This document shows, in pieces, positions 60 through 48,600 of a DNA stretch of 64,000 nucleotides. Numbering within the stretch: position 1 is the first letter of the stretch; every line of letters begins with the position of its first letter. The notes beneath the pieces are model-generated. The model made no database searches. It saw only the letters and a list, made by a program, of their open reading frames with translations, and was not told the origin of the DNA. A program made the position numbers and the translations under genes. The stretch lies in sequence record SRR33789315_92; one strand, 5' to 3'.

Positions 60-432
60 GTTATTTATAATACTGCTTTTCAGAAATAGATCAAAATAGT
101 TTTGTGATTTTGTAAATTAAATGTAGTCATGCTGTACCAGTAAATCACTAAAAATCCATAACTATCAAGGTACTAAGTCATATTTTTATTTGATGTTTTT
201 TTTACAAAAGAAGTGTACTTTGCTGTGTATATTACTTTTTTGGCAGGTTATTTAAGCGAATAGGTGATGTTTTTTGGTGAGGTAATGCTTAACGTGAATA
301 ACATTACGCCCTAAATAAATATTTATGTGCTATTAAATGGCTGAGGCATTCATCAGTGGAAGTGTTCTGAAATATCTCGAGCGTTTAAGTAAAAAAGCAT
401 CTTGGTCCAATCATTGTTGATAAGGAAATGAA

Positions 433-2727
433 TTGAAAACATCTGTACTTAATTTACCCATTAAATACCCAAAGGCAGTGTTGGTGATTTGCTTGTTTTT
501 AGTTTGTTTAGCGGCGCTGGGTAGCAAAAATCTCTATTTTAGAGGAGATTTCCGCGTTTTTTTTGAAACGAATAACCCCCAATTAATTGCCTATGAGCAA
601 ATGCAAAATAGTTTCAGTAAAAACGATAATGTCAGCATTATTGTCGCTCCACATTCGGGTAAGGTATTTGATATGGTCACTTTACAGCTGATTAAGCAGC
701 TAACCGAAGAGGCATGGCAAACACCTTTGTCTTCTCGGGTCGATTCAATAACCAATTTCCAGCATACATGGTCAGAGGACGATGATTTAATTGTCGAAGA
801 CTTAGTCAATGATGTGCCGCATTTGGATGCACTTAAAATTGAAAGTATACAACAGACTGCGCTTAATGAGCCTAATTTGGTGGGCCGCATGGTTTCAGCG
901 GATGGGAAGGTAACCATGGTTAATATCAACATTAATTTACCCGATGGTGATCAAACCCTTGAAGTGACAGAAGTAACACAGTTTGTTACCGCTCTGACAG
1001 AGCGTTATAAGTTGCTATACCCTGAATATGATTTTTATCACACTGGCGTCGTGATCATGAATGATGCTTTTACAAGCGCAGCCAAAAAAGATGCCTCGAC
1101 TTTAGTTCCTCTGATGTTTTTAACCATTATTATTGTAATGTGGTTAGCACTTAAAACCGTAGTTGGCACTTTTTCCACTGTTCTGGTTATTGTGGCTAGT
1201 ATTGTGAGCACTATGGGATTAGCCGGTTGGTTGGGCATTTTTTTAAGTACAGCAACGGTAAATGTACCTACCATGGTAATGACCTTGGCCGTAGCTGACT
1301 GTATTCACGTCGTTTCATCAATGTTACTTGGAATGCGCCAAGGCCAAGTTAAGTCAGAGGCTTTGTCCAATAGTCTACAACTCAACGTAAAACCGGTATT
1401 AATCACCACATTAACCACAGGCGTTGGTTTTTTAACACTTAATTTTGCAGAAGTGCCTATTTTGGCTGATTTGGGTAATTTAACCGCAATAGGCGTGTTA
1501 TTTGCCTGTGCGTTTTCACTCATACTCTTGCCCGCTTTAATTATGGTTTTACCAATCAAACCGTTAGCTCAACAATCGGTAAAAGTAGGACGCACTGAAG
1601 CGTTTGGGGAATGGGTTATTCATCATCATAGAAAATTATTGCCACTTTGTTTAGCTGTAACGGCACTGGCCATAGTGTTTGCTGTGAAAAACCATTTAAA
1701 TGATTCACCCACCCAGTATTTCGGTCAATCAACTGCATTTAGGCAATCCACTGATTTTCAACAAGCCAATTTGAGTGGTATGACATACATTGATTTTGCC
1801 CTGTATACCGAGCAAGAAAGTGGTATTAACGCGCCATCAGTATTGAAAGTAATCGACGAGTTTACTTACTGGTTACGCAGCCAGCCCGAAGTTGATCATG
1901 TTTCATCCATTAGTGATACGTTCAAGCGCCTAAATAAAAATATGCATAGCGATGAGCTAGGCTATTATGCCTTACCTGGTGATCGTGAATTGGCTGCACA
2001 GTATTTGCTGTTGTATGAAATGTCTTTGCCCTACGGACTTGATCTCAATAATCAGACCAATATGGATAAGTCAGCGACGCGTATTGTTGTAACCCTTCAA
2101 AATTTAGGTAGTAATGAACTCACAGGCTTTGAAAGCAGAGCCAAAAGTTGGTTTGAACAACGTGCTTCAAACTTAACGATTATAAGTGCCAGTCCCGGTT
2201 TAATGTTTGCGCATATTGGTGAGGCTAATATGGCAAGTATGATTGAAGGGACATTGCTGGCTTTATTGCTTATTTCTGGCCTGTTAATACTCGCACTTAA
2301 GTCTGTACGTTTAGGGCTTATCAGTTTATTACCCAATTTATTGCCAGCGGCCATTGGTTTTGGAATTTGGGGTGCCTATTCGGGAGAAATTAATTTAGGT
2401 TTATCCGTGGTTTTAAGCATGACCTTAGGTATCATCGTTGATGATACGGTGCACTTTTTAACTAAATACCAATATGCTCGTCAAGCAGGGAAAACGTCAG
2501 AAGAGGCTGTTCGTTATGCCTTTGCTAGTGTCGGTAGAGCATTGTGGATTACGACGATTGTTTTATCGTTGGGCTTTTCGGTTTTAATGTTATCGCCCTT
2601 TGCTTTAAATGCCGATATGGGCATGTTAACTAGTTTAATTATTCTAGTGGCCTTGGCGGTCGACTTGATATTTTTACCCGCATTTTTGATTGTTTTTGAT
2701 CGTAAAGAAAAACTTATAGGAGAGTAA
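433..2727 (+). CDS. MMPL/RND-family membrane transporter
   Basis: 764 aa with two halves, each a TM helix, a periplasmic loop and 5 TM helices. Motifs LAVADCIH and GIIVDDTVHF are typical of MMPL/SSD-type RND proteins. TTG start after AAGGA. Confidence 0.9.
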   Translation: MKTSVLNLPIKYPKAVLVICLFLVCLAALGSKNLYFRGDFRVFFETNNPQLIAYEQMQNSFSKNDNVSIIVAPHSGKVFDMVTLQLIKQLTEEAWQTPLSSRVDSITNFQHTWSEDDDLIVEDLVNDVPHLDALKIESIQQTALNEPNLVGRMVSADGKVTMVNININLPDGDQTLEVTEVTQFVTALTERYKLLYPEYDFYHTGVVIMNDAFTSAAKKDASTLVPLMFLTIIIVMWLALKTVVGTFSTVLVIVASIVSTMGLAGWLGIFLSTATVNVPTMVMTLAVADCIHVVSSMLLGMRQGQVKSEALSNSLQLNVKPVLITTLTTGVGFLTLNFAEVPILADLGNLTAIGVLFACAFSLILLPALIMVLPIKPLAQQSVKVGRTEAFGEWVIHHHRKLLPLCLAVTALAIVFAVKNHLNDSPTQYFGQSTAFRQSTDFQQANLSGMTYIDFALYTEQESGINAPSVLKVIDEFTYWLRSQPEVDHVSSISDTFKRLNKNMHSDELGYYALPGDRELAAQYLLLYEMSLPYGLDLNNQTNMDKSATRIVVTLQNLGSNELTGFESRAKSWFEQRASNLTIISASPGLMFAHIGEANMASMIEGTLLALLLISGLLILALKSVRLGLISLLPNLLPAAIGFGIWGAYSGEINLGLSVVLSMTLGIIVDDTVHFLTKYQYARQAGKTSEEAVRYAFASVGRALWITTIVLSLGFSVLMLSPFALNADMGMLTSLIILVALAVDLIFLPAFLIVFDRKEKLIGE

Positions 2728-31266: not shown

Positions 31267-33270
31267 CTATAGATCATGCCTAAACGGTAGCGCTGGTAAA
31301 TCCATTGAGTTGTATAAATTGGCAGGGCTGTTATCAGCCCAAGCATAGCGCACAGATGTGGGGTGTTTTATTTGGGCGGCACTGACTATAACGGTGTTGT
31401 CCTCAATCCTTGCTTGCGCATTAACAAATTTGCCATCTTTACCTGCAATTGCGAAACCGAGCAGTTCATTGCCTTTGACTCTTAAACCATCAGCAATATC
31501 TTGGTAAGATAATACTAAGACGTTTTTACCTGACAATGTCTGTTGTTCAACCAGTTTTAAACTTGGGCCAGCGTACGGTATGTCTTCGTTTAGCACTATA
31601 TATTGCGCCGCGCGCCATAAGCGTTCACCGACATCGGCTTTGTTACGTGGGTGAATATCGTCGGCATTGCCTATGTCGATGGTGACGGCCATGCCTGTAT
31701 TGGGTAGGTCTAAAGCAGAGGCTTGTGCTTCTCGTAATAAAGCCCAATCACTGTTCACGGGCTGTTCTTTTTGTTTGAGGTAACTGGCTAATTGTACAAA
31801 CAAAAATGGCATGTCTGGCTGGTGCCACTGTGCACGCCAATCATTGATCAAACCTTTAAAAAGTTTACTATATAAAGCATTAGCTCCCACATTATTTTCA
31901 CCTTGATACCAAATAACGCCCGCAATAGGGTAATTGACTAAGGGATGGATCATGGCATTAAACAATACACTGGGTTTCCAGTTATAAAACTTCACATCTG
32001 GCATTTTGGGTTCGATGTTATTTGACACCTGCCACTGACCACTCAAATCGAGCCTTTCATCATCTAGTTGCAGATAAAAACGAGAATCTTTGCCAATCAA
32101 AACGTTGTTGTCCCAGCTGTTAACTGCCCGAACAACAATGATGTTATCACCTTTGTGTAATAATTCAGTTGGAAGGTTGATTTCGTGAGTCGTGTCTTGC
32201 CAACCTTCTGAATAGATTTGTTGCCCATTAATAAATACTCGCCCAATTTGATTGAGTTCACCAATATCGAAACTGACCTTGTTAGGCACAACATCTAACT
32301 GAAAGTGCTTTCTGGCCCACACAATATCACTTAACGGCTGATTTTCAGCGGTTGGCAAAGTAAAGGGTTTCCATTGGCTATCATCATAATCAATGTTTAA
32401 TATTTTGCCGTCAGCATAGGCTAAAGGGCTGTCAATCAGTTGCCATTTTTGTTGTTCTAATTCGTCGTTATGGCTAAATTCTTGTTGCCATTTTTGTGCA
32501 TTTTGTAGCATGTCATTTGCATCAGTTTGGTAACCCTCAATTGATTGCAAGGCAGTTACTGAGGTCCATGCTTCAGCGGGAGTGCCGCCCCAAGTACTGT
32601 CAATAATCGCTACTGGAATGCCGGTATGTTGTTGATAACGTTTGGCAAAGTGCCAAGCAACGGCTGAAAACTCGCCAGTAGTAGTGGGGCTCGCTATTTT
32701 CCAACTGTCCCCAGTGATGTCAACTTGTGGAAGGGCATGGTACTTTTTGTTGAGTTCAAAATAACGAATGTTTGAATTGGCACTTTTAGCGACTTCGTCT
32801 TGCCAGTTATCCACTTGCCAGCTTAACTTCCATTCCATATTAGATTGTCCAGAGGCTAACCATACGTCACCAATGAGTACATCTTTAATATCAACGTTAT
32901 TATTTGCTTGGCTGATCGTTATTTCAAAAGGTCCACCAGCGACGTGAGCTGGCAAACTCAGTTGCCAGTAGCCGGACTGTTCGGCTACTGTTTTTTGTAA
33001 ACTAATCGCTTGTTGATCTTTTAGTAAACTAACAGTGATGTTTTCACCGGGTACTGCTTGACCCCAAATCTTGATAGGTTTGTTACGTTGCAACACCATG
33101 TGATCAGAAAATATGGCGGCCAGTTTTAAACTTGATTGCATTTTGGGCTCTTGTGTTTCGGGGCTTGTACCGTTTGGTTTGGCCTTATTGTCTGCAGTGC
33201 AAGCACCTAACAAACTCATAAAAACAGCCACTAAACAGAGGCCTTGTATATTAAATTTCATGTTATGCAT
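31267..33270 (-). CDS. Sialate O-acetylesterase-domain (SASA/CE20-like) carbohydrate esterase, lipoprotein
   Basis: Lipobox LGAC; FSDHMVLQR, GQSNM (catalytic Ser), WYQGENN and DIHP (Asp-x-His); a beta-sandwich is inserted between the catalytic halves. Confidence 0.85.
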   Translation of the reverse strand: MHNMKFNIQGLCLVAVFMSLLGACTADNKAKPNGTSPETQEPKMQSSLKLAAIFSDHMVLQRNKPIKIWGQAVPGENITVSLLKDQQAISLQKTVAEQSGYWQLSLPAHVAGGPFEITISQANNNVDIKDVLIGDVWLASGQSNMEWKLSWQVDNWQDEVAKSANSNIRYFELNKKYHALPQVDITGDSWKIASPTTTGEFSAVAWHFAKRYQQHTGIPVAIIDSTWGGTPAEAWTSVTALQSIEGYQTDANDMLQNAQKWQQEFSHNDELEQQKWQLIDSPLAYADGKILNIDYDDSQWKPFTLPTAENQPLSDIVWARKHFQLDVVPNKVSFDIGELNQIGRVFINGQQIYSEGWQDTTHEINLPTELLHKGDNIIVVRAVNSWDNNVLIGKDSRFYLQLDDERLDLSGQWQVSNNIEPKMPDVKFYNWKPSVLFNAMIHPLVNYPIAGVIWYQGENNVGANALYSKLFKGLINDWRAQWHQPDMPFLFVQLASYLKQKEQPVNSDWALLREAQASALDLPNTGMAVTIDIGNADDIHPRNKADVGERLWRAAQYIVLNEDIPYAGPSLKLVEQQTLSGKNVLVLSYQDIADGLRVKGNELLGFAIAGKDGKFVNAQARIEDNTVIVSAAQIKHPTSVRYAWADNSPANLYNSMDLPALPFRHDL

Positions 33271-33724: not shown

Positions 33725-34939
33725 ATGTTACGCATCTGTTTAATACTGACTTGCTTATTTATTTCGATTTCGAGTGAAGCTAAAAAATTTGCACAACTGG
33801 CACTCACTCCACCCATGGGCTGGAATAGTTGGAATACCTTCGCCTGCGAAATTGATGAACAATTAATTAAAGATATGGCAGACACTATAGCGAATAATGG
33901 CATGCAAAAAGCGGGTTATGAATACATTAATATTGATGACTGTTGGCATGGTGAGCGCGACGTTAATGGCAATATTCAAGTGAATAAACAGCGGTTTCCT
34001 TCTGGTATGAAAGCCTTAGCTGATTATGTACACAGTAAAGGCTTGAAACTTGGACTTTATTCCGATGCGGGATGGAAAACATGTGGTGGGCACCCTGGCA
34101 GTCGGGGCTATGAATTTCAAGATGCACAACAATATGCCAATTGGGGCATCGATTATTTAAAATACGATTGGTGTAATACGGAAGGTTTAAAAGCTGAAGG
34201 TGCATATTTGACTATGCGTGAAGCATTATACAAAGCCGGACGACCAATTGTATTTAGTTTGTGTGAATGGGGTGATAACCAACCCTGGGAATGGGCTAAG
34301 GATATTGGCCAGTTGTGGCGCACAACAGGCGATATTTACCCGTGTTTTGATTGTGAATATAATCACGGAACATGGTCTTCATGGGGAGTATTAAAAATAC
34401 TGGACATGCAAAAAGGCTTACGTCAGTACGCCGGTCCTGGTCATTGGAATGACCCAGATATGATGGAAGTGGGTAATGGCATGTCACCGGCAGAAGATCG
34501 CAGTCATTTTGCCATGTGGGCAATGTTAGCGGCACCACTCATTGCGGGAAATGATTTACGTACAATGAATGCTCATACATTAGGTTTGTTGACGAACAAA
34601 GACATCATTGCGGTAGATCAAGACAAGTTAGGCATTCAGGGCTTTATCTATGCTGAAAAGTTTACTGATACAGATTTGCAAGTTTGGTTTAAACCTTTGG
34701 AAAATGGTGATTGGGCAGTGGCCGTGTTAAATCGCGGTGATAAAACAGCAACATTCAACTTTGATTGGAAAGCGCACAGCGTAAGTGATGAGTTATCACA
34801 ACGAGATGCGCAATTTTCCACACTGAATTATCAGGTGAAAAACTTATGGAATGGTCAGCAAATATCGACTTCCCAACAACCATTACAACAAAAAATCGAT
34901 GCTCACGATACGCTCATATTGCGATTGATTCTTAAGTAA
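33725..34939 (+). CDS. Alpha-galactosidase, GH27
   Basis: Signal peptide; TPPMGWNSWN, IDDCW, YLKYDWC (nucleophile Asp), WRTTGDI (acid/base Asp) and WNDPDMM. Confidence 0.95.
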   Translation: MLRICLILTCLFISISSEAKKFAQLALTPPMGWNSWNTFACEIDEQLIKDMADTIANNGMQKAGYEYINIDDCWHGERDVNGNIQVNKQRFPSGMKALADYVHSKGLKLGLYSDAGWKTCGGHPGSRGYEFQDAQQYANWGIDYLKYDWCNTEGLKAEGAYLTMREALYKAGRPIVFSLCEWGDNQPWEWAKDIGQLWRTTGDIYPCFDCEYNHGTWSSWGVLKILDMQKGLRQYAGPGHWNDPDMMEVGNGMSPAEDRSHFAMWAMLAAPLIAGNDLRTMNAHTLGLLTNKDIIAVDQDKLGIQGFIYAEKFTDTDLQVWFKPLENGDWAVAVLNRGDKTATFNFDWKAHSVSDELSQRDAQFSTLNYQVKNLWNGQQISTSQQPLQQKIDAHDTLILRLILK

Positions 34940-35030: not shown

Positions 35031-35070
35031 TAACTGCTGGGTAAATTTTATTTACTTAGCAGTTATTTTT
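35031..35070 (+). terminator. Intrinsic terminator after GH27
   Basis: TAACTGCTGGGTAAA-tttta-TTTACTTAGCAGTTA-TTTTT. Confidence 0.7.
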
Positions 35071-35373: not shown

Positions 35374-35486
35374 AATTAATGTGTTGTATCAAAACATGGT
35401 TGATAGCCGATGAATAAGCAAATTTTAATTGATGGCTCAGGATGTATAGCGAGTTTAGCTTAATAATAAAACAGGGACCTTTCCTC

Positions 35487-38400
35487 ATGTTTATAAAGAA
35501 GAAATTGAAAACACAGGTAACATCTATTGCTTTGGCAGTGAGTTGCGCCTTGATTCATAGTGCGGTATTTGGCCAACAGGTTGCTGTTGAGCCAGCAGCA
35601 ATAGATGACACAACTGAAATTATCGAGGTAAAAGGCATTCGTACCTCCCAAGCGGCCGCTATCGATTTAAAAAGAGAAGCCGCTACGATAGTTGATTCGA
35701 TTGTTGCGGAAGACATTGGTAAATTGCCAGATGCGACCATTGCTGATTCACTTTCTCGGATCTCGGGAGTACAGGTTAAACGTGAGGCCAACGAAGCCAC
35801 TTCGCTAAACATCCGTGGTATGCCGCAAGTTTTAACCACGCTTAATGGTGAGCAATTTTTAAGTCCGTGGACCATCACCGATGTGGGCGCTAATTACGGT
35901 GATATTCCTGCGAGTATGATCACTGGAGTAGATGTTTATAAATCGATTAACTCAAAAGCCTTGTCTGGTGGTATTTCGGGTTTAGTTGACTTAAAGACAG
36001 CCAATGCCTTAACACTTAAAAAGGGCTGGACCGGCAATTTGCGTTTGGAAGGATCTCAGGGCGATTTGACTAACGAAGAAGTGCATAGTGATGGAACTGT
36101 CACAACTCGAATTGACCCAAATGTGAATGCTTTTGTTGGTTATAACGGCGGTAAATTTGGTTTTACTGCAGGTTTATTTAAATCTGAATCCAACGCGGCA
36201 AACTACCAAATGTGGGATGACAACCGACTGGCATTTTTAGACTCACAAGGTGGTCAACCAGGCGACCCACTGGATTTAGATAACGACGGTGATTTAGTCA
36301 ATGATTGGTACATGGTGCCAGGTAACTTTGGGGTGCGCAGTAACTTTATGGAGCGTCAACGCAAAGGTGGCGCCCTAAGTATTGAAGTGCAATTAACGGA
36401 TAATTTTAAATTAAGTGGAGATGTGTTTTATACCCAGATGGATCAGTATGATCGTGGGGTAAACATTAATTTTAATGGTCAATCCAGTATAAATTCCATC
36501 TCTATTAACAATGGTCCGCAAGAGCAGGAAAACTTATATAACGTCTTGGTTAAAGAGGGAACCATTACCTCACCAGGCGCTGATATTAGTTATGTGGATG
36601 CCGATGGTAATACCCAAACAAAAACCATACATACTGTGCAAGTGGCACACATTAATTCCCGAGATTTTCAAACTAACTCTAACAATACCATTAATCATAC
36701 AGCGGCATTGAATACTAACTTGCAGTTGGATTATAACAACCACGACAATATTGAAGCGTCAATTCGTTACGTTTATGCCCACGCTGAAAAACAATATCGT
36801 ACAGCCACCTTGAATCAGGGAACACCTGCTTGGTTATGGGTTGATGAAGACGGTATCTCAGGTCATGATCCTATCAACGTTTATGATGTGGTGGTGGATT
36901 ACCGTGGTGAGGTACCCACTTTTAGCTATGATCCTATCGCTAATGATCTATCAAAAGCCTCTTATTTAAGAAAATATCAAGCCGCGGGGGATGGTAGTAA
37001 TACTGAAGCCGATCTGGATGTGCTGCGCGCTGATGTGACCTACTTTCTCGACAGTAACAAGTTTATCCAGTCGGTTGATGGCGGTCTGCGCCGTGGTGTA
37101 CGACAAGCTGACCATACTAAGTTTTTCTACGCTACACCAACTGGTCGTTACTCAACCTGGAATGATGCAACCGTGCCAGAAGACAAACGTTATAAGTTAC
37201 TACCGGGTAACGAAGTCTGGCAAAAATACCCTGAATGGCGTGATTTTTATTATGAGTTAGAAGACGCTAATTTGCGCGCTCAGGATGATTATATCGATAA
37301 CGGTTTTAGTGTTAGAGATACCGATGTATTTACCGATTTTGGCCCGATTAAAGGTTTTGAAAACGGCGTTTCCTCACTTGACCCCAATAATTGGGATAGC
37401 CCCTTAGATTTTCTTAATACTCTTTATCCTGGAACTAAAACCATTGAAGATCCCGGTTTTACTTATGCTGTAAAAGAGACTTCTACGTCAGCATTTTTAC
37501 AAGCTAACTTTGCCAATGATGAGCTGTTTTTTGGCATTCCTGTGCAAGGTGATATTGGGGTTCGTGTAGTACGTACCGAAAGAGAAATTACTAAAGCGGT
37601 GATCCCTGCGGTACTCGATCGTAATAATTCTGTGGGGGCTGGTTCTCAGCCTTGGCAGAAAATTGCCTTTGTGTCTGATACCGAAACTGTTGATCGTTCG
37701 TTTACTGATGTTTTACCTTCACTCAACTTAAACGTTTTCCCTAGTGATGAAGTGATATTACGTTTTGGTGTATCCAAAAATATGACCCGTAATAATTTGG
37801 AAAACCTCGGGTCGGGATTAGTCTTGTGGTATCAGCAATGTGTTAAAACCGCAGCTGATGGTTTTCCAGTTAAGGTACGTGATGGCAGCGGCCAATTACG
37901 CGACGCACTGGTAGGTTGTTCTGGTGGTGGTAGTGACAACGGTGATCCTGATATGAAACCTTGGCGCGCCACAGTCTATAACAGTTCTGTGGAATGGTAT
38001 TTTGCTGAGAATTCGATTATCGGCCTCGGTATGTTTTTAATTGACGTAGAAAGTGCGGTAGCTAGTTATCAAGAACAACGCAATTTTGCCGACGCTGATG
38101 GCATCAACCGTGGCAGAACGGTCAATGTGTGGACTACAGGTAACGTAGACGCCTCTGATTTAATGGGTTTTGAGATTGGTTATAAACAACCTTTTACCTT
38201 CTTTGAAAACCCCATTTTGAATTCTTTGGGCATTGAATTTAACTATACCTATTCAGACAGTGAATCACCCGATATTGATGTAGAAGGTAATGCCTTACCC
38301 TTACCCTCGAACTCTAAACACCAGTCGAACGCCATTTTGTGGTACGACAAAGATGGTTTGAATATGCGTGTGGCCTACAACTGGCGTAGTGAAGAATACG

Positions 38401-38639
38401 TGGACAGGGTTGGACTCAATACTAACGGCGTACCGCTTAATTTGGGTAACTGGAACGAGTCTATTGGTTATCTAGATGCGCAGGTTAATTATTGGGTAAA
38501 TGAGCATATTAGCTTCTCGTTGAGTGGTACTAACTTGACCTCAGAGGACCGCAAATCCTATGCACAGTTTGAAAATCAATTTCAATCACTTTGGGTACAA
38601 GAACGGCGTTATACCTTAGGTATGTCGTTGAGCTTTTAA
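35487..38639 (+). CDS. TonB-dependent receptor
   Basis: Signal peptide, TonB-box-like EIIEVKGIR, plug DSIVAEDIGKLPD..IADSL.RI.GV and a C-terminal LSF. ATG at 35487 preferred (the ORF extends to 35442). Confidence 0.95.
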   Translation: MFIKKKLKTQVTSIALAVSCALIHSAVFGQQVAVEPAAIDDTTEIIEVKGIRTSQAAAIDLKREAATIVDSIVAEDIGKLPDATIADSLSRISGVQVKREANEATSLNIRGMPQVLTTLNGEQFLSPWTITDVGANYGDIPASMITGVDVYKSINSKALSGGISGLVDLKTANALTLKKGWTGNLRLEGSQGDLTNEEVHSDGTVTTRIDPNVNAFVGYNGGKFGFTAGLFKSESNAANYQMWDDNRLAFLDSQGGQPGDPLDLDNDGDLVNDWYMVPGNFGVRSNFMERQRKGGALSIEVQLTDNFKLSGDVFYTQMDQYDRGVNINFNGQSSINSISINNGPQEQENLYNVLVKEGTITSPGADISYVDADGNTQTKTIHTVQVAHINSRDFQTNSNNTINHTAALNTNLQLDYNNHDNIEASIRYVYAHAEKQYRTATLNQGTPAWLWVDEDGISGHDPINVYDVVVDYRGEVPTFSYDPIANDLSKASYLRKYQAAGDGSNTEADLDVLRADVTYFLDSNKFIQSVDGGLRRGVRQADHTKFFYATPTGRYSTWNDATVPEDKRYKLLPGNEVWQKYPEWRDFYYELEDANLRAQDDYIDNGFSVRDTDVFTDFGPIKGFENGVSSLDPNNWDSPLDFLNTLYPGTKTIEDPGFTYAVKETSTSAFLQANFANDELFFGIPVQGDIGVRVVRTEREITKAVIPAVLDRNNSVGAGSQPWQKIAFVSDTETVDRSFTDVLPSLNLNVFPSDEVILRFGVSKNMTRNNLENLGSGLVLWYQQCVKTAADGFPVKVRDGSGQLRDALVGCSGGGSDNGDPDMKPWRATVYNSSVEWYFAENSIIGLGMFLIDVESAVASYQEQRNFADADGINRGRTVNVWTTGNVDASDLMGFEIGYKQPFTFFENPILNSLGIEFNYTYSDSESPDIDVEGNALPLPSNSKHQSNAILWYDKDGLNMRVAYNWRSEEYVDRVGLNTNGVPLNLGNWNESIGYLDAQVNYWVNEHISFSLSGTNLTSEDRKSYAQFENQFQSLWVQERRYTLGMSLSF

Positions 38640-38697: not shown

Positions 38698-41600
38698 ATG
38701 AAAACACTAAATAGTAAGCGCTCAAAAATAGGCAGATATCTCAGTTATTTGCCTGTTGTTATGGCAGGATTATTACTGCAAAGTTGTGGTTCTGAGCTAT
38801 TGGATAAAAATGCCGATATTGATACCTTGGTGCCAGAGGCTCCAGTTGAATTACCTAATCGTCCCGCGCCTTCAGAAGATGCTTTGGTTATAGCCACTAG
38901 CAGTAATGAAATTTTTGATGCCTCAACCGACCCCATCTTATTAAGAGGAATTAACCTGCAATATGGTGACAATCCCGAGGTGCGTTTAGCTGGCATTGCG
39001 GCCATTAAAGAAACCGGCGCTAATGTGGTAAGGTTGCAACTCAGAGCCAATACCACAGCGGAACAATTAGAAGCCGCGCTAGACGAAATTGTGGCTAACG
39101 GCATGATTGCCATGCCCATGTTGTGGGAAGGTGAAGGGCAAATTACCTGTACCGAAAGTTCTGAATTTATCGAAAAATACACTCAGGAATTATGGTTTGA
39201 CCGCTGGATAAATGTATTAGTCAAAGATAAATACCAACCCCATTTAATGATTAATATTGCTAACGAATGGGGCCCCATGAATGTATGGGATGCCAATAGT
39301 GTAGGGTATGCTGAATATATAGACGTATATAAGTCGATTATTCGAGAGTTTAGGACGATAGGTTTTCGGGTTCCTCTGGTTATCGATGCACCCCATTGTG
39401 GCCAGGACTATAACGCTTTTTTGGCTGATCGTGCGCTAGAGCTGCAAGCGGCTGATGTCGAATCTAATATTGTCTTATCTGTTCATGCTTACGGTGCGAA
39501 GTGGAATTCGAGTAATAAGATTGTTGCGGCGACTGATGCTATGTCAAAAACCGGTGTGCCTTTTATCATTGGTGAATTTGGTGGTTCTATGGCATTTGGT
39601 GCGGCTTCTATCGACCATACCGATCTGATTACCAAAGGGGTGGGGGATCAGGCAATGGTCTTTAACTTCCCGTGGAATGGTGGTGACAATAAATCTGCTT
39701 ATCAACATGAATTGCCCGAAGTGCTGGACTTACAAGGTTCAAATATTAGTGCTGATGTGTATATTCCTGTGCGTTATGTGGAAAATGGTAAGTTAGCTGT
39801 GCAAATGTATCTGCGTGATGGTTCTGACCGTTATGCGAGTTTGGGCTTTATGCAGGCTAACGATACCGACTTGAAAGGTAACGCTTGGACCAAACTGAAT
39901 TTTAGTGTGGAAAGTGTCGCTGACTTTGGTGGTTGGGTTGAAGAGGGTTTTGATCTTGCTGATGTGAAAAAGATAGGTTTTGAAGTGTCTGCCAATGGCA
40001 AATCTACTAATGTGGTTGGTGATATCAAATTTGATAATATCAAAATTGAAGCCGGTGGTGCGGTACCCGCCATGTATCAAGCTGATTTTATTGGCGAGAC
40101 TGAAGGTTGGGGTAAAGACTGGACTGCGGGTACTGTAGTGTCTTCTGATGCCGACAATCTGGTTATTACTCAGGATTGGGCAGCTAGTGATTCCTTCGCC
40201 GTTTTTGTTGGTGGCGCGAATACCGGTATTGATACCAGTAAGCCGCTGAACATCAAGGTTAATATGTTTTTGCCAGCTGAGTACGCTAGTGAAACTAGTT
40301 TGTATTTTAAAATCTATGTTAACCATGGCGATGCGTGGGATTGGGCCGAAACGAGTACAGCAACAATTGCTGATTTTACTCCAGGTGAGTGGAGTGAAGT
40401 GGTATTTGAAAATGTAGATTGGACTACTTTGGGCGAATTAAAAAAATTCGGTATGTTACTTGGTGGCGTTAGCGCGGGTAAAACCGAAGCGATACTCGTG
40501 GATTCTATTACTGTCGTTGACCCAGATGCCACTGAAAGTGCCGGTGAACCACCGATGTACAACGCTCAATTTGCTGCTGATGCTGAAAGTTGGGGTAAAT
40601 TCTGGGGCGGGGATACCACAGTTGCCGCCGATGCTGCAGGTTCATTGGTTATCACGCCTGATTGGGTGACTGAAGGTAAACTTGGATTTGGCGTTGCTGG
40701 CAGCAATTTTGATACCTCAGCTCCGGTTACCATCAAAACTAAAGTTTTTATTCCAGCCTCTTATGTGCAAGAAAGTGGATTGTACTTCAAAGTGTTTGTG
40801 CAGGATCAAGGCTGGGGCTGGTTCTCTGCACCTCAACCAGATTTAACATTGGCTGATTTTACTCCTGGCGAATGGACTGAAATTACAATTGAAAATGTGG
40901 ACTTATCTTCACAAGTTGCGCCTTTCCAACGTTTTGGTATCGAAATGGGTGGAGTGGTAATGACGGAAAACACCGATCCTATCTTGATTGATTACTTGGC
41001 AGTGCTAGGTGATGGTCAATCACTGGATGCTGGTGGTGTGTTGGGCCTAATTACTCAATATGAGCAGGACTTTATTGGCGAACTAGGCGGTTGGGAACGT
41101 GATACTTGGGAAGATCCTACCGGTTCTATTATGGTAGAAGGTACAGACTTAGCCTTGAGTCAACAATGGTCAAGTAAAGATCAACTTGGTTTCTATGTAG
41201 GTGGTAGTGTAGCGAATTTGGACACCAGCGCGCCGCTCACCTTAAGCGCCCGAGTGTATATTCCAGCGTCATACAGTGATGCCAACAGTTTATTTTTCCG
41301 CTTCTATGTACAACACGGTGATGATTGGTCTGGTTGGAATATCACAGAGAATAAGGTTTTTGCTGATTTTAATGTTGGTGGTTGGACTGAGTTAACCTTC
41401 GAAGATGTTGATTTTACTATGGTACAAACACTACAACGTCTTGGTATTCAAGTGGGTGGCGTAGGTGCTGATAAAGCAGAGCCGATTTTGATTGATTATG
41501 TCAAAGTGGAGAAAATTGGTTTAGTACCTTTAGAGTTAGAAACACTCTTCAACATGAGCTTTAACGACCCAGCTGAAGTTGAGGCGTGGACCTTGGATTA

Positions 41601-41832
41601 CGCTGAAGGTGGCTTTGATACAGAAGTACTGAGAGAAGCCAAAGTGCACGGTTTTGGGGTAGTGCCTTATGGCTGGATGGCGTGGTCATGGAAAGGCAAT
41701 GGTGAAGCGACTATTGGATTGGATATGTCGACCTCAGAAAACAGTGTTGAGTTAACCACTCGTGGTAATGAGATTGTCAACGGACCAAATGGCATTAAAG
41801 CCAGTTCGGTAGCGGCAGGATTTGGTAATTAA
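38698..41832 (+). CDS. Lipoprotein GH5 (GH5_8-like) endo-beta-mannanase with a split catalytic barrel and four inserted CBM-like modules
   Basis: Lipobox LQSC; LRGIN, GANVVRL, NIANEW (E190), SVHAY and IGEFG (E293). The last strand GWMAWSWKGN..LDM..LTTRGNEIV.GPNGI appears only at about aa 992-1040. Confidence 0.85.
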   Translation: MKTLNSKRSKIGRYLSYLPVVMAGLLLQSCGSELLDKNADIDTLVPEAPVELPNRPAPSEDALVIATSSNEIFDASTDPILLRGINLQYGDNPEVRLAGIAAIKETGANVVRLQLRANTTAEQLEAALDEIVANGMIAMPMLWEGEGQITCTESSEFIEKYTQELWFDRWINVLVKDKYQPHLMINIANEWGPMNVWDANSVGYAEYIDVYKSIIREFRTIGFRVPLVIDAPHCGQDYNAFLADRALELQAADVESNIVLSVHAYGAKWNSSNKIVAATDAMSKTGVPFIIGEFGGSMAFGAASIDHTDLITKGVGDQAMVFNFPWNGGDNKSAYQHELPEVLDLQGSNISADVYIPVRYVENGKLAVQMYLRDGSDRYASLGFMQANDTDLKGNAWTKLNFSVESVADFGGWVEEGFDLADVKKIGFEVSANGKSTNVVGDIKFDNIKIEAGGAVPAMYQADFIGETEGWGKDWTAGTVVSSDADNLVITQDWAASDSFAVFVGGANTGIDTSKPLNIKVNMFLPAEYASETSLYFKIYVNHGDAWDWAETSTATIADFTPGEWSEVVFENVDWTTLGELKKFGMLLGGVSAGKTEAILVDSITVVDPDATESAGEPPMYNAQFAADAESWGKFWGGDTTVAADAAGSLVITPDWVTEGKLGFGVAGSNFDTSAPVTIKTKVFIPASYVQESGLYFKVFVQDQGWGWFSAPQPDLTLADFTPGEWTEITIENVDLSSQVAPFQRFGIEMGGVVMTENTDPILIDYLAVLGDGQSLDAGGVLGLITQYEQDFIGELGGWERDTWEDPTGSIMVEGTDLALSQQWSSKDQLGFYVGGSVANLDTSAPLTLSARVYIPASYSDANSLFFRFYVQHGDDWSGWNITENKVFADFNVGGWTELTFEDVDFTMVQTLQRLGIQVGGVGADKAEPILIDYVKVEKIGLVPLELETLFNMSFNDPAEVEAWTLDYAEGGFDTEVLREAKVHGFGVVPYGWMAWSWKGNGEATIGLDMSTSENSVELTTRGNEIVNGPNGIKASSVAAGFGN

Positions 41833-41861: not shown

Positions 41862-41891
41862 AAAAAGCCGGACTTAAAGTCCGGTTTTTTT
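41862..41891 (+). terminator. Intrinsic terminator after GH5
   Basis: AAAAAGCCGGACT-taa-AGTCCGGTTTTTTT. Confidence 0.88.
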
Positions 41892-42272: not shown

Positions 42273-45200
42273 ATGATACTGAAAACCAAACTTAAACCAC
42301 TTGGGTCCTTTGTGGCCCTTGCTTTACTGACTAGCCTAACAACAGGTTGTATTAAAGAAGCGAAATTAAATACTGATACGGTAGTGTATACACCTGAAGA
42401 GAGACCCTTAGGTGTTATCGCTGGCGAACCGGCAGAATATGCCTTAGGTGAAACGGAAAATATTACTCTTACAGGACGTTTAGTCGGTACCGTCACCACA
42501 GAATCTGTATTGTGGACCCAAACCGGTGGCACATCAATTACGGGTGACATTGATTGGACTAAAGGAAATCTGACTTTCCCGACACCTGATGTTGAAGGTA
42601 TTGAAACCTTTATCTTTGAAATCACCGCATTGGATAGTGATGGTAATGTTATCAATGATGCAGATGGCAATCCACTGGTAGCCTCTACCAGCATTACGGT
42701 TTTCGATCCGGCAATCTTAGTCACTTACGAAATCGAAGACGCCTCAGTGGCTGAACTTGTTTCAGTGGCAATGGTGTCGTCTGGTGATGCTAATTATCTC
42801 ACGGGGGCTTCTGGTTCACATACAGCTGATATTGTTCCTGGTGCATCAGTGGTGTTTACGGTTAATCAAGAGCAAGACGCCTTCTTTACTTTGTATGCTC
42901 GTTTGGGTATTCCTTCAGCAGGTTACGGCAGTAAAAATGCTGTAGTGACAGTCAATGGTGTTGATACTGAATTGACGGTTGATGCCACTGGCAGTTTTTC
43001 TAATTATCGTGTTGGCATTATCAAGTTAACTGCTGGGGAGAATATTATCGAAGTGGGTGGTGGTTGGAATTACTATCGCTTGGATAGTATTTTAATGATC
43101 CCCGCCGCTGAGCCACCCGCACCATTAGCCGTAGCGCCAACCTTAGTTAACCCTAATGCTCAAGCATCAGCTTTGGCTGTTATGGAGTTTTTGGCGGCCA
43201 ATTATGGTACGGCGACTTTATCGGGTCAAACAGAGTATCCCAATAAAATTGATGGTGCCTTTCCTTTAACTGAATTTGATAAGGTTGTGGCGGCCACTGG
43301 CGATGATGCTCCTGCCATTGTGGGGTTCGATTTTATCGATTTCTCTGCCACTCGAGTGGCCAATGGCAGTGATACTACTGGTTTGTCAGAAGCCATGATT
43401 GCACAACATCAAACTAAAAACGTCATGCTTTCTGCCCTGTGGCACTGGAATGCACCCATGCATTTACTCGATGCCGATGGTGACGGGGTAGGTGATGTGT
43501 CAGGTAGTGATCAACAAGCGTGGTGGGCTGGTTTTTATTCACGAGCAACATCCTTTGATTTAGCTGCGGCGCTCGCTGACACTAATAGCCCAGAATATGC
43601 GGCACTGTTAGCCGATATTGATACGGTTTCAGCTGAGCTTAAAAAGTTTGCCGATGCGGATATTCCTATCTTGTGGCGCCCTTTACATGAAGCTGAAGGA
43701 GAGTGGTTTTGGTGGGGTACAGCAGGGCCTGAAGCATTAAAAGAATTATGGGTACTGATGTATGACCGTATGACTAACATGCATGGTTTAAACAATTTGA
43801 TTTGGGTTTATACCCATGCACAAAGTTTAGATGCTAACTGGTACCCCGGTGATAACTATGTGGACATTGTGGGTTACGACGGCTATGACGGTAACAATCC
43901 AGATAATCCCTTCAAAGGACAATATGCCACTTTAAAAAATCGTCATAACGGTAAAAAAATTGTAGCCCTAACTGAAACGGGCACTATTCCTAATGTTGCC
44001 TTGATGCATGAACAAAATGCCTGGTGGTCATTTTTCATTACGTGGAATTCAGGCGGTGACTATGGTCCTGATGGCATAGACGCGGCGGTAATTGATGCAA
44101 ATTATGCCGATGATGGTGTGATTAACTTGGCTGATATTCCTGGTGGCCGCGCTAAAATTGAAGTGGGAACGTGGGAAGACTTCGAAGTCAGCACTGCCAA
44201 TTTTGAAGCGCAAATTAATTGGGCTGCAACTAGTGGTATTGCTACTTCTGAAAAGTGGGCAACCAGTGGCTCACGGTCATTAATATTAGCTAAAGATCTT
44301 TCCTTAGAAACGGCGCCAACTGGCGCGATGTTCCAAGTTTATCCTACGGGTGGACTGGACGTCAGTGACGTCAGTACAGTGACTGTCAGTGCTAATGCAA
44401 TTAATGCAGGCGCAGGCACAACCGTAAAACTATTTGTTAAACATGGTGATGATTGGGAATGGGTAGATAGTGGTCCCGTAGCCATTGTAGATGGTGGTGT
44501 TGAGTTACAAGTGGATGTAGCAGCATACGATTGGTTAGCTGGTTTAGGTTTTCAATTTGAAGGAATAGACCCAAGTGCAACAGCCGCGGAGTTTTACCTT
44601 GATAATGTCAGGCTTGATGACGCCGTTATCTATGACTTTGAACCAGATGCTTCTGGTTTTGAATCACAAATTAACTGGACTGGTGTACCCGGTATCACAG
44701 TAACCAATGATTGGGCAGCCAGTGGTAGTCGCGCTTTAACAATGAGCAAAGATCTTAATACCTTTACCGACCCTACTGGTGCGATGTTTCAGGTTTATCC
44801 TGAAGGCGGTATTGATGTCAGTGAAGTATCGAAAGTGAAGGTCAGTGCCAACGCGATTGGCGCAGGTGCAGGTACGACCGTTAAGTTATTTGTTAAATAT
44901 GGAGATGATTGGGCATGGGCTGATAGCGGCGCGGTAGCCATTGTTGATGGCGGCGTTGAGCTCGAAGTGGATGTGTCTGGTTATGCATGGTTAGCTGGTT
45001 TAGGTTTTCAATATGAAAGTATTGATGCAACGGCCAACGATGCACGCTTTTATTTAGACAATGTGCGTCTTGATGAACAAAATATTTACGACTTTGAAGG
45101 CACAGGTAGCTGGGAGTTTCAAGTAAATTGGTCACCCACCAGTGGTGTGCAATTAGCTCAAGATTGGGCGGCTGAGGGTGAAAATTCATTGGCAGGAATA

Positions 45201-45521
45201 ACTCAACTAGTTGATGGTGATGACAATATCATCTTGCAAGTTTACCCCGCGGGCGGCTTGTTGCTTGGTAATGTTACGACTTTAAAAGTCACCGCTAAAG
45301 TGCAAGACGCTGGTGACAATGTGCAAGTTCAGTTATTTGCTAAAGACAAAGATTCAACGTGGCGAGATGGTGGTGCTGTAACGATGACACCAGAAGGAGT
45401 TGAGCTCAGTTTAGATATTGCTGATATGGGTGAAATAAGCGGCTTTGGTGTGCGTTTTATGAGTCCTTCTAACAGCACCAGTGAATCTAGTTACTATATC
45501 GATAAAGTGGTTTTTGAATAA
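42273..45521 (+). CDS. Multimodular lipoprotein GH26 beta-mannanase (Ig-like + CBM35-like + GH26 + three CBM-like repeats)
   Basis: Lipobox TTGC; WTQTGG Ig/PKD-like domain; YEIED..GGWNYYRLD CBM35-like module; WRPLHEAEGEWFWWG (acid/base), WYPGDNYVDIVG.D.Y and ALTETG (nucleophile); three DFE..INW..YLDNV repeats. Confidence 0.9.
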   Translation: MILKTKLKPLGSFVALALLTSLTTGCIKEAKLNTDTVVYTPEERPLGVIAGEPAEYALGETENITLTGRLVGTVTTESVLWTQTGGTSITGDIDWTKGNLTFPTPDVEGIETFIFEITALDSDGNVINDADGNPLVASTSITVFDPAILVTYEIEDASVAELVSVAMVSSGDANYLTGASGSHTADIVPGASVVFTVNQEQDAFFTLYARLGIPSAGYGSKNAVVTVNGVDTELTVDATGSFSNYRVGIIKLTAGENIIEVGGGWNYYRLDSILMIPAAEPPAPLAVAPTLVNPNAQASALAVMEFLAANYGTATLSGQTEYPNKIDGAFPLTEFDKVVAATGDDAPAIVGFDFIDFSATRVANGSDTTGLSEAMIAQHQTKNVMLSALWHWNAPMHLLDADGDGVGDVSGSDQQAWWAGFYSRATSFDLAAALADTNSPEYAALLADIDTVSAELKKFADADIPILWRPLHEAEGEWFWWGTAGPEALKELWVLMYDRMTNMHGLNNLIWVYTHAQSLDANWYPGDNYVDIVGYDGYDGNNPDNPFKGQYATLKNRHNGKKIVALTETGTIPNVALMHEQNAWWSFFITWNSGGDYGPDGIDAAVIDANYADDGVINLADIPGGRAKIEVGTWEDFEVSTANFEAQINWAATSGIATSEKWATSGSRSLILAKDLSLETAPTGAMFQVYPTGGLDVSDVSTVTVSANAINAGAGTTVKLFVKHGDDWEWVDSGPVAIVDGGVELQVDVAAYDWLAGLGFQFEGIDPSATAAEFYLDNVRLDDAVIYDFEPDASGFESQINWTGVPGITVTNDWAASGSRALTMSKDLNTFTDPTGAMFQVYPEGGIDVSEVSKVKVSANAIGAGAGTTVKLFVKYGDDWAWADSGAVAIVDGGVELEVDVSGYAWLAGLGFQYESIDATANDARFYLDNVRLDEQNIYDFEGTGSWEFQVNWSPTSGVQLAQDWAAEGENSLAGITQLVDGDDNIILQVYPAGGLLLGNVTTLKVTAKVQDAGDNVQVQLFAKDKDSTWRDGGAVTMTPEGVELSLDIADMGEISGFGVRFMSPSNSTSESSYYIDKVVFE

Positions 45522-45619: not shown

Positions 45620-48600
45620 ATGCCTTCTCATAAAAAATTTAAACACAATTTATTATCCGTCAGTGTGCTCGCTGGGCTGACGTTGTTACCACTAAGCATC
45701 CATGCACAACAAGTGAATGATGACACAGAAGTCGCAGAAAAAGATGACGCTGAAGTGATTACAGTGCGCGGTATTCGTGGCTCACTTATTCAATCCATGA
45801 ACAACAAACGTTATGCCGGTAGTGTGGTGGATTCCATCAGCGCGGTGGATATCGGTAAATTACCTGATAGTACCATCGCTGACTCATTGCAGCGTATTAC
45901 CGGTATTCAAATCACGCGTTCTGGTGGTGAAGGAGCCTTGGTTAATATTCGTGGTAATGGCAATGTAACAACAACACTCAATGGTGAGCAAATGTTGTCG
46001 GCAGGTAACGTCACAACTATTACGCCTGATTTTGCCGATATCCCCTCAACTATGGTATCGGGTTTAGACGTGTATAAATCGTCACAAGCGCGCAATGTGG
46101 TGAGTGGTTTAGCTGGCACAATCGATCTTAAAACCAATCGCCCTTTTATGTTAACCGAAGAGTGGACAGTATTAGGTAAGGCCGAAATGACACGTGGCTC
46201 ATTAGGCAAAGAAAATGATGGTTTAGTCTCGGCATTTATTGGTTATAACAATGATGACAAGTATGGATTTACCTTGAACCTTGCCAAATCTTCTAGTCAT
46301 TTGGCTGATTATACCAATGGTTCACAAGGTGGTGAACCGGGTCAATATGGGGGATGGTCGTTTAATGCCAGTGAAGCGGCTAACTTTGTGCAAGATGATG
46401 TAGATGTGAATGGCGACGGTGACTTTAACGATGTGTATTACGGTTTTCAGGGCCATCAGGCCAGCAATCGTTTTATTGATCGCGATCGCACTGGGGTGAA
46501 TAGCTCTGTGCAATTTCAATTGACCGATTCCTTGAAATTAACCGGTGATGTGTTTTATACCAAGCTGGAAGAGTACCAATATTTTGCGGGTGTAGTGGCC
46601 AGCCAAGCATGGCAAGGTGTAACCGGATGGTATACTCCCACTGAAACCACTGAATACCCTAACATTACTAGTCAAGATGGGGTCTTTACTACTAACGAAG
46701 GCAGTTATTACACTATTCAAGAGGCCGACTACCAAGCGCGGGCAGTAAAAACTCACTCACAAACCTGGGCAGTAGAAAAAGAAGCATTGAATACCAATCT
46801 TGAACTCGCTTTTGATAATGGTGGAGCCTTTACCGGCAAAGTACGTTGGGTGCATGGTGAAGCCAATAATGATATGAGTCGCAGTATTATTGACTCCTTT
46901 ATCACCTCAGGTTCACAAATTGGTGATACTTATCATGGACCCGGTACAGAATTTATTAGTAATGCCAACCCATGGGGTTATGACGGAGTATCTGCCACAT
47001 TGCCTGATGGCGCAGCCGTTGACGCATATACGCAAATTCCGGTAACAATTAGCTATCGAGGTGGTCAACAAAACTGGAACTTCGGCTCTATTGATGTCAC
47101 TGAACAAGACGGTAGCATTACCAATGAAGTGTTTGGCAGTAACTTAAATCGTTACAGCAACAAATCCAGTAACCTCTATGGTGAATTTTCGAATGCTCAG
47201 CTTGATATCGCTCGATTTGACGGTTCTTATGTTATTGATATCGAGGCACTAGGTATGGTCAGCTCAGTTGATTTTGGCCTACGTCAAGGTCAACGAGAAG
47301 TGTCTAAAAATGGTTGGTATGGCGGTGTAGCCCGCACTAACGCTTATGGTGATGCGTTTTTAGCTCGTTGGAAAGATACTGCAACCCAAGCACCTCTCAC
47401 CTTGGAATCTTATATTCCTCCTATGTCATTTACTGAGTTAGATGCCAAAGGAATGATCACTGGTATTAGTGATTTTCACGGCTCTACTGGTTTAGGTACG
47501 CTGTACTTTATTGATCCTAAAGCCATGAAAGATCCTATTGCCTGGCACAATGAAATATATGGCACTAATGTATTGGTACCTGATGCGGCTAATGTATATA
47601 AGGTAAAAGAAAAAACGCAGAGTGTTTACTTTCAGGCTAACCTTGATGGCGACATAGCAGGCATGTCATACACAGGGAATATTGGTTTTCGTTACATCAA
47701 AACCGAGTTTGATATTACTCAGAGTGAGGGTTTACAGGGTACTGTGGCAAATTTTAATGGCCAAGACTTTTTAATTGGCCCAGGTATTTTGCAACCTGAC
47801 GGTAATAAAATAAATACCATCAATGCATACAATGATTTGCTACCCGCTTTAAACTTGGCGTTAAATTTAGATGAAGAACAAGTTTTAAGGTTCTCTTATA
47901 CTGAAACTGTATCGACCCACAATACCGATCAACTCGCTGGTGGTTTAACCGTGAATCGGGTTAAAAACTGTGGAATTAACAACGCTCAGGGTGAAGAGGT
48001 GTTTTGTGCCACGGGCGGTGGCCAGGATGGTAACCCTAACCTTCAACCTAACCGCAATGATAATCTGGAAGCTTCCTATGAGTGGTACTTCAGCGAAACC
48101 GGTATGTTTAATGTCGGCTTATTTTGGAGTAGAGGTAATACGGAATTTAGAACATCTTTAGTATTACGTGATGACATAGTTGACAGTGATGGGGTCGTGC
48201 GCGGTTATAATTTATCGACCGGTGAATTTACCGGCACCGTGCCCATTCAAACTACTGAAACCTTTGATGTTACTGGTGATTGGAACTTTGACAAACCCGG
48301 TTTAGAAATGGGTTATCAGCAAGGTTTAGACTTTCTAGATGGATTTTGGAGTGGTTTTGGGATTACGGCCAACTACACCTATTCACCTAGTGAAAGTAAT
48401 GACATGGATTTTTATGGTAGTTCTCTACCCGGTATAGGAAATTCTAAACATCAAACCAACTTAGCTTTATGGTATGAAAAAGATGGTATACAAGCCCGTA
48501 TCGCCCATAACTACCGCAGTGAAATGTTTAACGGGGTAAAATACGAAGGGGCTTATCAGTTTGCTTATTGGACAGCAGCGACTAGCTACTTAGATGCCTC

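Follow-up and report, generated by a model that had tools for sequence, protein, structure and literature searches.

A probable GH5_8-type mannanase with a discontinuous barrel and four carbohydrate-binding-module-like domains between helix α7 and strand β8

Introduction

How does a glycosidase barrel close when its eighth strand is encoded about 700 positions downstream of its N-terminal catalytic residues? The question is raised by one gene (38698..41832, plus strand) in a stretch of DNA of 64,000 nucleotides from sequence record SRR33789315_92, called the window here. An earlier note, made from the letters alone, had described its product as a mannanase from family 5 of the glycoside hydrolases (GH5) whose barrel is split by four β-sandwiches resembling carbohydrate-binding modules (CBMs). 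We followed this up with profile and structure searches, structure prediction and a phylogeny. The protein (the query below) is very probably a GH5_8-type endo-β-1,4-mannanase with a discontinuous barrel, in which a four-module insert of ~670 residues occupies the α7-to-β8 connection and would serve as a mannan-binding array at the cell surface.

A GH5_8 barrel encoded in two segments

The reading frame is open from end to end and encodes 1044 amino acids (aa). The acid/base motif NIANEWG lies at aa 186-192 (E190, codon 39265-39267, plus strand) and the nucleophile motif FIIGEFGG at aa 289-296 (E293, codon 39574-39576, plus strand), while YGWMAWSWKGN, followed by LDM...LTTRGNEIVNGPNGI, stands at aa 991-1001 (Trp996, codon 41683-41685, plus strand). 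The positions given in the earlier note, with both glutamates in the N-terminal part and WSWKGN from about aa 992, hold in the translated frame. Pfam PF00150 (GH5) covers aa 74-301 only, which corresponds to profile positions 2-243 of 272. When the protein was compared with the PDB by phmmer, it turned out that all eight matches were GH5_8-type β-mannanases and that the best three were split in two pieces, as had been predicted for a profile alignment. For instance, query 69-301 matches residues 8-233 of chain 1bqc and query 990-1037 matches residues 248-295; for 1wky the pieces are query 56-301 with 3-235 and query 991-1037 with 251-297 (i-Evalue of the second piece 3.2e-5). In both structures, GNE and IGEFG are the aligned counterparts of N189-E190 and E293. 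In the same searches, the distance from the nucleophile to the β8 motif is 31-34 residues in unsplit relatives, and 693 residues stand between the aligned columns in the query versus 14-39 in unsplit relatives. An insert is therefore present as claimed, with a net size of ~670 aa (~317-988) and not ~650.

The junction alignment defines where the insert begins. The query segment IDHTDLITKGVGDQ aligns with the α7 helix segment of unsplit relatives, e.g. IDHLRLMERAQLDS, and in those relatives the α7-to-β8 gap is 0-4 residues. Because the α7 sequence IDHTDLITKG aligns with unsplit α7 and precedes the insert, the insertion site is the α7-to-β8 connection; the insert lies between β7 and β8, as the earlier note had it, but after helix α7 and not directly after β7. 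The α-to-β connections of (β/α)8 barrels are on the face opposite the active site, so an insertion there leaves the catalytic loops untouched. The insert is not housed in a loop of the catalytic face, such as β3/α3 in GH10.

A full-length AlphaFold2 model was built on a 90-row alignment, with a mean predicted local distance difference test score (pLDDT) of 86.7 and a predicted template modelling score (pTM) of 0.60; the last 95 residues have pLDDT 93-97. The (β/α)8 fold of the model is closest to GH5_8 structures. VIA-align superposes 292 residues on a solved barrel of 308 residues at 1.4 Å, and the aligned model range is 63..1044; the N-terminal part can give at most ~255 residues of the 292 superposed, which speaks indirectly against the refuting case named in the note, a barrel complete without the tail. 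Foldseek aligned just ~260 columns, which correspond to the N-terminal part. By DSSP, β7 of the model is 289-294, α7 is 307-314, the first strand of the insert is 317-322 and β8 is 992-995. In the tail, W993, A995, W998, G1000, L1019, T1020, G1023 and G1032 are conserved in at least 90% of sequences. The expectation that aa ~60-315 and ~970-1040 form a single barrel thus agrees with the model and with the superposition, which demonstrate a discontinuous GH5_8 barrel with intact catalytic residues.

On the plus strand, the N-terminal part of the barrel is encoded by 38878..39645 (aa 61-316, β1-β7 and α7; delimited by PF00150, the PDB matches, DSSP and the junction alignment), and the C-terminal part by 41662..41832 (aa 989-1044 and the stop codon, β8 with WMAWSWKGN and α8; delimited by the second PDB pieces and the VIA-align range). 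They are preceded by a signal peptide (38698..38787, plus strand), in which a lipobox-like L27-Q28-S29-C30 after a hydrophobic stretch was read from the sequence, and by a linker of aa 31-60 (38788..38877, plus strand) that is predicted to be disordered (pLDDT below 50 for aa 31-48). Of the 90 aligned sequences, 90% or more keep Cys30, and the family consensus is LLQGCGG; the Gln at lipobox position -2 of the query is atypical. The signal peptide with its lipobox-like motif and conserved cysteine marks the product as a predicted lipoprotein. In the N-terminal barrel part, C151 and C234 are also kept in at least 90% of the 90 sequences, unsplit relatives included, and may form a disulfide.

Catalytic residues in the query and its relatives

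Arg, His, Tyr and the Trp of β8 are among the conserved active-site residues of GH5. The query has every one of R112, N189, E190, H263, Y265, E293 and W996, and W996 aligns with W254 of 1bqc in the phmmer alignment, a position which we take to be that of the -1 subsite tryptophan of GH5. For the 76 split relatives with a tail (alignment A1), we scored the catalytic residues. W996 is kept in all 28 relatives with both glutamates, in 20 of 24 with the nucleophile only and in 4 of 24 in which both glutamates are lost, while W993 and W998 are kept in all 76. Trp996, ~700 positions downstream, thus shares the fate of the N-terminal catalytic residues, which is expected if they belong to the same active site. 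R112 and H263, like W996, are kept in 28 of the 28 relatives with both glutamates, and position 265 is Tyr in 22 and Phe in 6 of them; where both glutamates have been lost, these positions, R112 among them, are degraded. All proteins of the query's four-module clade (12 of 12) keep the glutamate pair together with R112, H263, Y265 and W996.

The catalytic glutamates were lost in several subclades of the tree, and the split relatives without them are probably enzyme-derived glycan-binding lipoproteins. In the relatives with a double loss (within P0021-P0062 and P0082-P0100), the -1 Trp, His and Tyr are degraded, while the scaffold, module 1 and the tail are conserved.

Modules of the insert

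The insert comprises four modules and a closing segment, all on the plus strand. Module 1 has a core of aa 317-456 (39646..40065), which hhalign identifies as a divergent jelly-roll without its first ~27 residues. Module 2 (aa 457-614; 40066..40539) is a CBM-like β-jelly-roll; module 3 (aa 615-782; 40540..41043) is its paralog (BLASTP, 43% identity, E 4e-38), and module 4 (aa 783-947; 41044..41538) is a paralog of both (40% identity to module 2, E 2e-40). By BLASTP, modules 2, 3 and 4 are mutually 40-44% identical. The closing segment (aa 948-988; 41539..41661) has three strands and two short helices by DSSP. Between modules 1 and 2 the hhalign probability is 98.9% (E 1e-17), with residues 1-137 of module 1 aligned to 28-153 of module 2. 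Module 1 was found in all 77 long relatives; module 4 is limited to the four-module clade and is at least half covered in 14 of the 90 aligned rows.

We modelled the insert separately (aa 318-990; pLDDT 88.8, pTM 0.51) and searched the structure against 48,161 PDB representatives. The fold matches with the highest Z are CBMs, including CBM27, which binds mannan, and CBM59 from a GH5_8 mannanase. The matches of module 2 are jelly-roll CBMs, with CBM28, CBM15, CBM4 and CBM29 close behind, and the structures matched by the insert include the CBMs that interrupt PbXyn10C (4mgq) and BiXyn10A (4qpw). Since the match scores are tied, the modules are best described as CBM-like and not by a CBM family. 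At the sequence level, the whole protein scores 27.1 bits against PF21253 (Mann_GBD_bact; cut-off 27), and the Mann_GBD repeats in the adjacent GH26 are matched by the insert modules at E 3e-5, weakly suggesting that the modules are distant homologs of these repeats. With the CBM fold matches and the homology among modules, the four CBM-like β-sandwiches proposed in the earlier note are supported, and the arrangement is that of internal CBMs: non-catalytic β-sandwich modules are encoded inside a catalytic domain that closes around them.

One refinement concerns the order of the modules, which do not appear to form a plain string. Because module 1 lacks its first ~27 residues and is apparently completed by aa ~948-988, the array seems to be nested. 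The closing segment holds pLDDT 93-97 in the insert-only model, which has no barrel; it is present in all 77 long relatives, the two-module forms included, and unsplit enzymes have 0-4 residues there. The matches to the single-domain CBMs 4mgq (138 aligned residues) and 4yu5 (143 aligned residues) span residues 1..673 of the insert-only model. The best profile alignment of the tail is with residues 1-27 of module 2, exactly the part missing from module 1; against modules 2-4 the tail profile gave no significant score (E 0.07-0.18). A complex prediction of module 1 (317-457) with the closing segment (945-990) gave no verdict (score 0.01) and was used neither way. We lean towards modules 2-4 being nested in module 1, which would be completed by strands after module 4 and is itself nested in the barrel. 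Such nesting could have arisen from a tandem array with truncated end repeats that complement each other.

Distribution and phylogeny

A word-index search returned 80 proteins, and an exhaustive search of 50%-identity representatives returned 60 at E <= 1e-30. The split layout is unusual but is conserved among marine bacteria: it is seen in 77 aligned long relatives, one of which (P0048) ends before the tail. Relatives have two, three or four modules, and the insert lengths among the 77 are ~378 residues (2 proteins), 514-580 (62), 685-694 (12, including the query) and 727 (1). The relative from Alteromonadaceae bacterium BrNp21-10 is 85% identical to the query and those from Neptunicella are 78-79% identical; further named members come from a Colwellia metagenome-assembled genome, Saccharophagus degradans (879 aa), Teredinibacter turnerae and T. 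franksiae, and the genome loci add Paraglaciecola hydrolytica S66 and Catenovulum. Public names of the relatives are generic, e.g. "cellulase family glycosylhydrolase"; the "truncated GH5" label foreseen in the earlier note is not what they carry, and it is the Pfam match that is partial.

The tree was built from barrel columns only, with the 88 rows that remained after the C-terminally truncated P0048 and P0101 were dropped. The three- and four-module forms make one clade of 74 rows (Shimodaira-Hasegawa-like approximate likelihood ratio test, SH-aLRT, 99). The 12-member four-module clade of the query (SH-aLRT 100) is sister to a three-module protein, and the branch to the query is short. The two proteins with two modules fall in a polytomy with unsplit enzymes; the tree (support 59) allows the split to have arisen once but does not show it. 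Five related genomes each have a single split copy, and none of them has a dead paralog.

Genomic context

The gene lies in a set of genes for mannan use. A TonB-dependent receptor gene (TBDR1; 35442..38639, plus strand; Pfam Plug and TonB_dep_Rec_b-barrel) ends 58 nucleotides upstream, and a GH26 mannanase (42273..45521, plus strand) with one C-terminal CBM35 and three Mann_GBD (CBM59-like) repeats by Pfam follows; the last of these repeats matches residues 313-464 of 1wky at E 7.6e-7. Further genes are a SASA-type esterase (31267-33270, minus strand), a GH27 α-galactosidase (33725-34939) and a second receptor, TBDR2 (45620-48757), and the locus also contains a 2-epimerase, a LacI-type regulator, an SSF transporter and the start of a GH130. 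From its gene content the locus reads as a galactomannan-utilisation system. Among the window open reading frames (ORFs) that were scanned, a part of the total, no SusD family was found.

The genome-locus scan used a single protein as query and reaches close relatives only (8 loci). In all 8 the gene directly upstream of the split GH5 is a TBDR1 ortholog (61-95% identity), and in 4 of 8 a GH26 follows, so TBDR1 is a probable operon partner of the split GH5. A terminator-like hairpin of 13 pairs with a T run was found by consensus scan 30 nucleotides past the stop codon (41862..41890, plus strand). Together with a hairpin at 35031-35065 it brackets TBDR1 and the GH5 gene; both are pattern matches only, and hairpin site counts in the region are not above those of shuffled sequence.

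Several other features were observed at these loci. Downstream in the window there is a hybrid sensor kinase/response regulator of 1324 aa (48912-52886, plus strand; Reg_prop, HisKA, HATPase, receiver and AraC-type helix-turn-helix), an architecture typical of regulators of Bacteroidota polysaccharide utilisation loci, here in a gammaproteobacterial mannan locus. It is followed by an ORF of 1825 aa (53136-58613, plus strand), for which no Pfam family scored above threshold, the sole sub-threshold match being a phage tail-tube family; compared with the GH5 insert it has no similarity (best E 1.5). Catenovulum sp. SX2 (NZ_CP182494.1) carries a TBDR and a three-module split GH5, then a GH26, on a 456-kb plasmid, and Catenovulum agarivorans YM01 carries the same order, again with three modules, on a chromosomal scaffold. 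Contig NZ_JBGQOM010000016.1, which is labelled Flavobacterium sp., is syntenic with the window, with seven genes at 72-96% protein identity. The other relatives are all Alteromonadales-type Gammaproteobacteria, and the label may stem from a mixed culture or from an assembly assigned to the wrong organism.

Discussion

In the mechanism we propose, aa ~61-316 (β1-β7, α7 and both glutamates) and aa ~989-1044 (β8, Trp996 and α8) would close one (β/α)8 barrel, and module 1, without its first two strands, would be completed after module 4, bringing the ends of the insert together at the barrel. The protein would act as a lipid-anchored endo-β-1,4-mannanase at the outer membrane, presumably exposed on the surface. 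Its module array would bind mannan chains there, with avidity from the repeats, and the enzyme and the probably co-transcribed TBDR may cooperate by cutting mannan and handing over manno-oligosaccharides. The lipid-anchor linker and the insert both depart on the non-catalytic side, so the cleft of the active site would face in the other direction. We infer the mannanase activity with indirect support from the locus with GH26, GH27, GH130, epimerase and esterase, and carbohydrate binding by the inserted modules from CBM fold similarity and the weak homology to Mann_GBD/CBM59.

Several points weigh against this reading. That the barrel closes and that module 1 packs against the tail was derived from aligned ranges and residue counts, not from contacts, and the model is not independent of homology, because the alignment used for folding contained unsplit GH5_8 sequences. 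The relative placement of the modules is not fixed by models with pTM 0.60 (full length) and 0.51 (insert). As for the identity of the modules, modules 2 and 4 alone score below the PF21253 cut-off (18.9 and 20.4 versus 27 bits), and a sequence search of the PDB with the insert gave no match (0 at E <= 1). The nesting is weakened by the non-significant profile alignment of the tail with module 2 (E 0.18), and the alignments to 4mgq and 4yu5 are sequential, which is awkward for a strictly permuted module 1. Furthermore, 48 of the 76 split relatives lack the acid/base glutamate (24) or both catalytic glutamates (24), so the scaffold evidently also serves non-hydrolytic roles. Finally, the binding role may not affect catalysis, because deleting the inserted CBMs of GH10 Pm25 (PMC7848910, excerpt) or the internal CBM of BcWH2_GH26 (PMC13357471, excerpt) barely altered activity.

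The alternative that survives best accepts the split barrel and takes the modules as a rigid scaffold, a spacer or a dock for the TBDR, and not as carbohydrate binders. It is favoured by the exit of both the insert and the lipid-anchored N-terminus, which would be on the non-catalytic side, and by the strict pairing with a TBDR in 8 of 8 loci. Within the insert, conservation is highest in module 1 and the closing segment, and even catalytically dead relatives retain these two. In addition, the kinetics of BcWH2_GH26 are unchanged without its internal CBM, for which its authors propose positioning within a utilisome (PMC13357471, excerpt). However, the top-Z fold matches of the insert are CBMs, with mannan-binding CBM27 and the CBM59 of a GH5_8 mannanase among them, the modules are distantly homologous to Mann_GBD repeats of the neighbouring GH26, and a module number that varies from two to four suits avidity better than a fixed docking geometry. 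We regard this explanation as unlikely, while giving it real weight.

That the query is a glycan-binding pseudo-enzyme and not a hydrolase is quite improbable. Such an identity would fit the frequency with which glutamates are missing among the split relatives, and a non-catalytic lipoprotein subgroup has been placed near GH5_8 (PMC3526467, excerpt); but the query and its whole four-module clade (12 of 12) keep NE190, E293, R112, H263, Y265 and W996, and the branch to the query is short. Still less credible is a self-sufficient N-terminal barrel, possibly seven-stranded, with the WSWKGN tail as what remains of a second GH5 domain that decayed and plays no part in the first. GH5_8 proteins with two domains do occur, as in P0066 with its two IGEFG...WSWKGN sets, so an ancestor with the order GH5-CBMs-GH5 could have decayed; against this, the 292 residues superposed on the 308-residue barrel come from a range that reaches 1044, the tail has pLDDT 93-97 and eight residues conserved in at least 90% of sequences, and the retention or loss of W996 goes with that of the N-terminal catalytic residues. 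The present single barrel could nevertheless have originated by deletion inside a two-domain ancestor of this kind. An artefact (frameshift, fusion of two genes or chimeric assembly) has a negligible chance: nothing was found in its favour, the frame is open, the same layout recurs without internal stops in 8 independent genome records, and it is found in 77 aligned relatives from several sources.

Returning to the proposed mannan-binding enzyme, we tentatively suggest a wider setting, which we find possible but doubtful. The family might be the gammaproteobacterial counterpart of the surface "utilisome" of Bacteroidota, with a TonB-dependent transporter paired to one lipoprotein in which surface endo-mannanase and glycan-binding array are combined, with the insert doing the job of a surface glycan-binding protein (SGBP) or SusD, with the Glu-less relatives as dedicated binders derived from enzymes, and with an insert that arose from a tandem array with complementary truncated end repeats. 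Under this suggestion, the hybrid domain made from the complementary end repeats would let a long array fit a very short turn of the barrel.

As for known systems, internal CBMs are documented in GH10, GH13 (SusG), GH148 and GH26/CBM112 (PMC13357471, excerpt). Our literature searches, which had most subscription journals and CAZy outside their reach, found no described split GH5_8, and a term search in the 2022 survey of GH5_8 architectures (PMC8952944) did not return the word "insert". The principle of internal CBMs is thus known, while the family, position, size and nesting of the present insert appear to be undescribed. In the solved GH5_8 mannanases from Bacillus agaradhaerens (2whj, 2whl), Bacillus sp. 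JAMB-602 (Man5A-CBM59, 1wky), Thermobifida fusca (1bqc) and Streptomyces (4fk9, 3wsu), the barrel is contiguous and any CBM is terminal, whereas the query has ~670 residues between α7 and β8.

The Xyn10C-like GH10 enzymes of Bacteroidota (Pm25, PbXyn10C, BiXyn10A), which have 1-3 CBM4/CBM22 modules inside the barrel (PMC7848910, excerpt), resemble the query in that a clan GH-A (β/α)8 barrel is broken by tandem jelly-roll CBMs. They are also surface lipoproteins encoded beside an outer-membrane transporter gene, with a variable number of modules, and their insert of at most three modules is in the β3/α3 loop of the catalytic face (PMC7848910, excerpt). In contrast, here up to four modules sit on the opposite face, in the α7-to-β8 connection, the first of them seems to be nested, and the host is a gammaproteobacterium. 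BcWH2_GH26/BuGH26 with internal CBM112 are likewise surface lipoprotein β-mannanases of a mannan locus with a β-sandwich inside a clan GH-A barrel (PMC13357471, excerpt); they differ in being GH26 with a single module of ~115 aa, apparently from another module family. Besides, the plant GH5_14 glucosidases, with a fascin-like module after β1, are a precedent for a domain inside a GH5 barrel (PMC3526467, excerpt), although the subfamily, the position, the kind of inserted domain and the kingdom are different.

Relatives of the query may already have been met in the literature. Aspeborg et al. 2012 mentioned three lipoproteins close to GH5_8 whose GH5 module is inactive and which have a "large C-terminal extension" (PMC3526467, excerpt). 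These share with the split family the lipoprotein character, the place near GH5_8 and a long region after the recognisable GH5 part, and they are probably the dead branch of this family, the insert having been taken for an extension, an identification that we infer from the excerpt. There the extra region is called a C-terminal extension and the excerpted text does not mention a returning β8/α8; the query, on the other hand, keeps its catalytic residues. In Table 7 of a review of S. degradans, Man5Q (gene 2541) is listed with a lipobox, GH5, 92.3 kDa and no CBM (PMC3124978); it is probably the homolog of P0016. Separately, GH5 proteins with a C-terminal CBM112 are reported to end in a "domain of unknown function" of 30-40 aa (Fig. 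6B legend of PMC13357471, excerpt); a returning β8/α8 is made less likely there by the report of this tail in CE7 and in proteins of unknown class as well.

Should the model hold, the (β/α)8 barrel of a glycosidase tolerates an insert more than twice as large as itself in a connection that takes 0-4 residues in unsplit relatives, on the face opposite the active site, unlike the known cases in GH10, GH13 and GH26. Since domain callers see profile positions 2-243 of 272 and the names are generic, the returning β8/α8 is missed and the insert is easily taken for a C-terminal extension. Constructs trimmed of this "extension" would lose β8 and the -1 subsite Trp and should be inactive. With its strict TBDR pairing and its many dead relatives, the family would be a good system for studying cell-surface polysaccharide capture by marine Gammaproteobacteria, which lack SusD, and it would also be suited to studying how an enzyme evolves into a binding protein.

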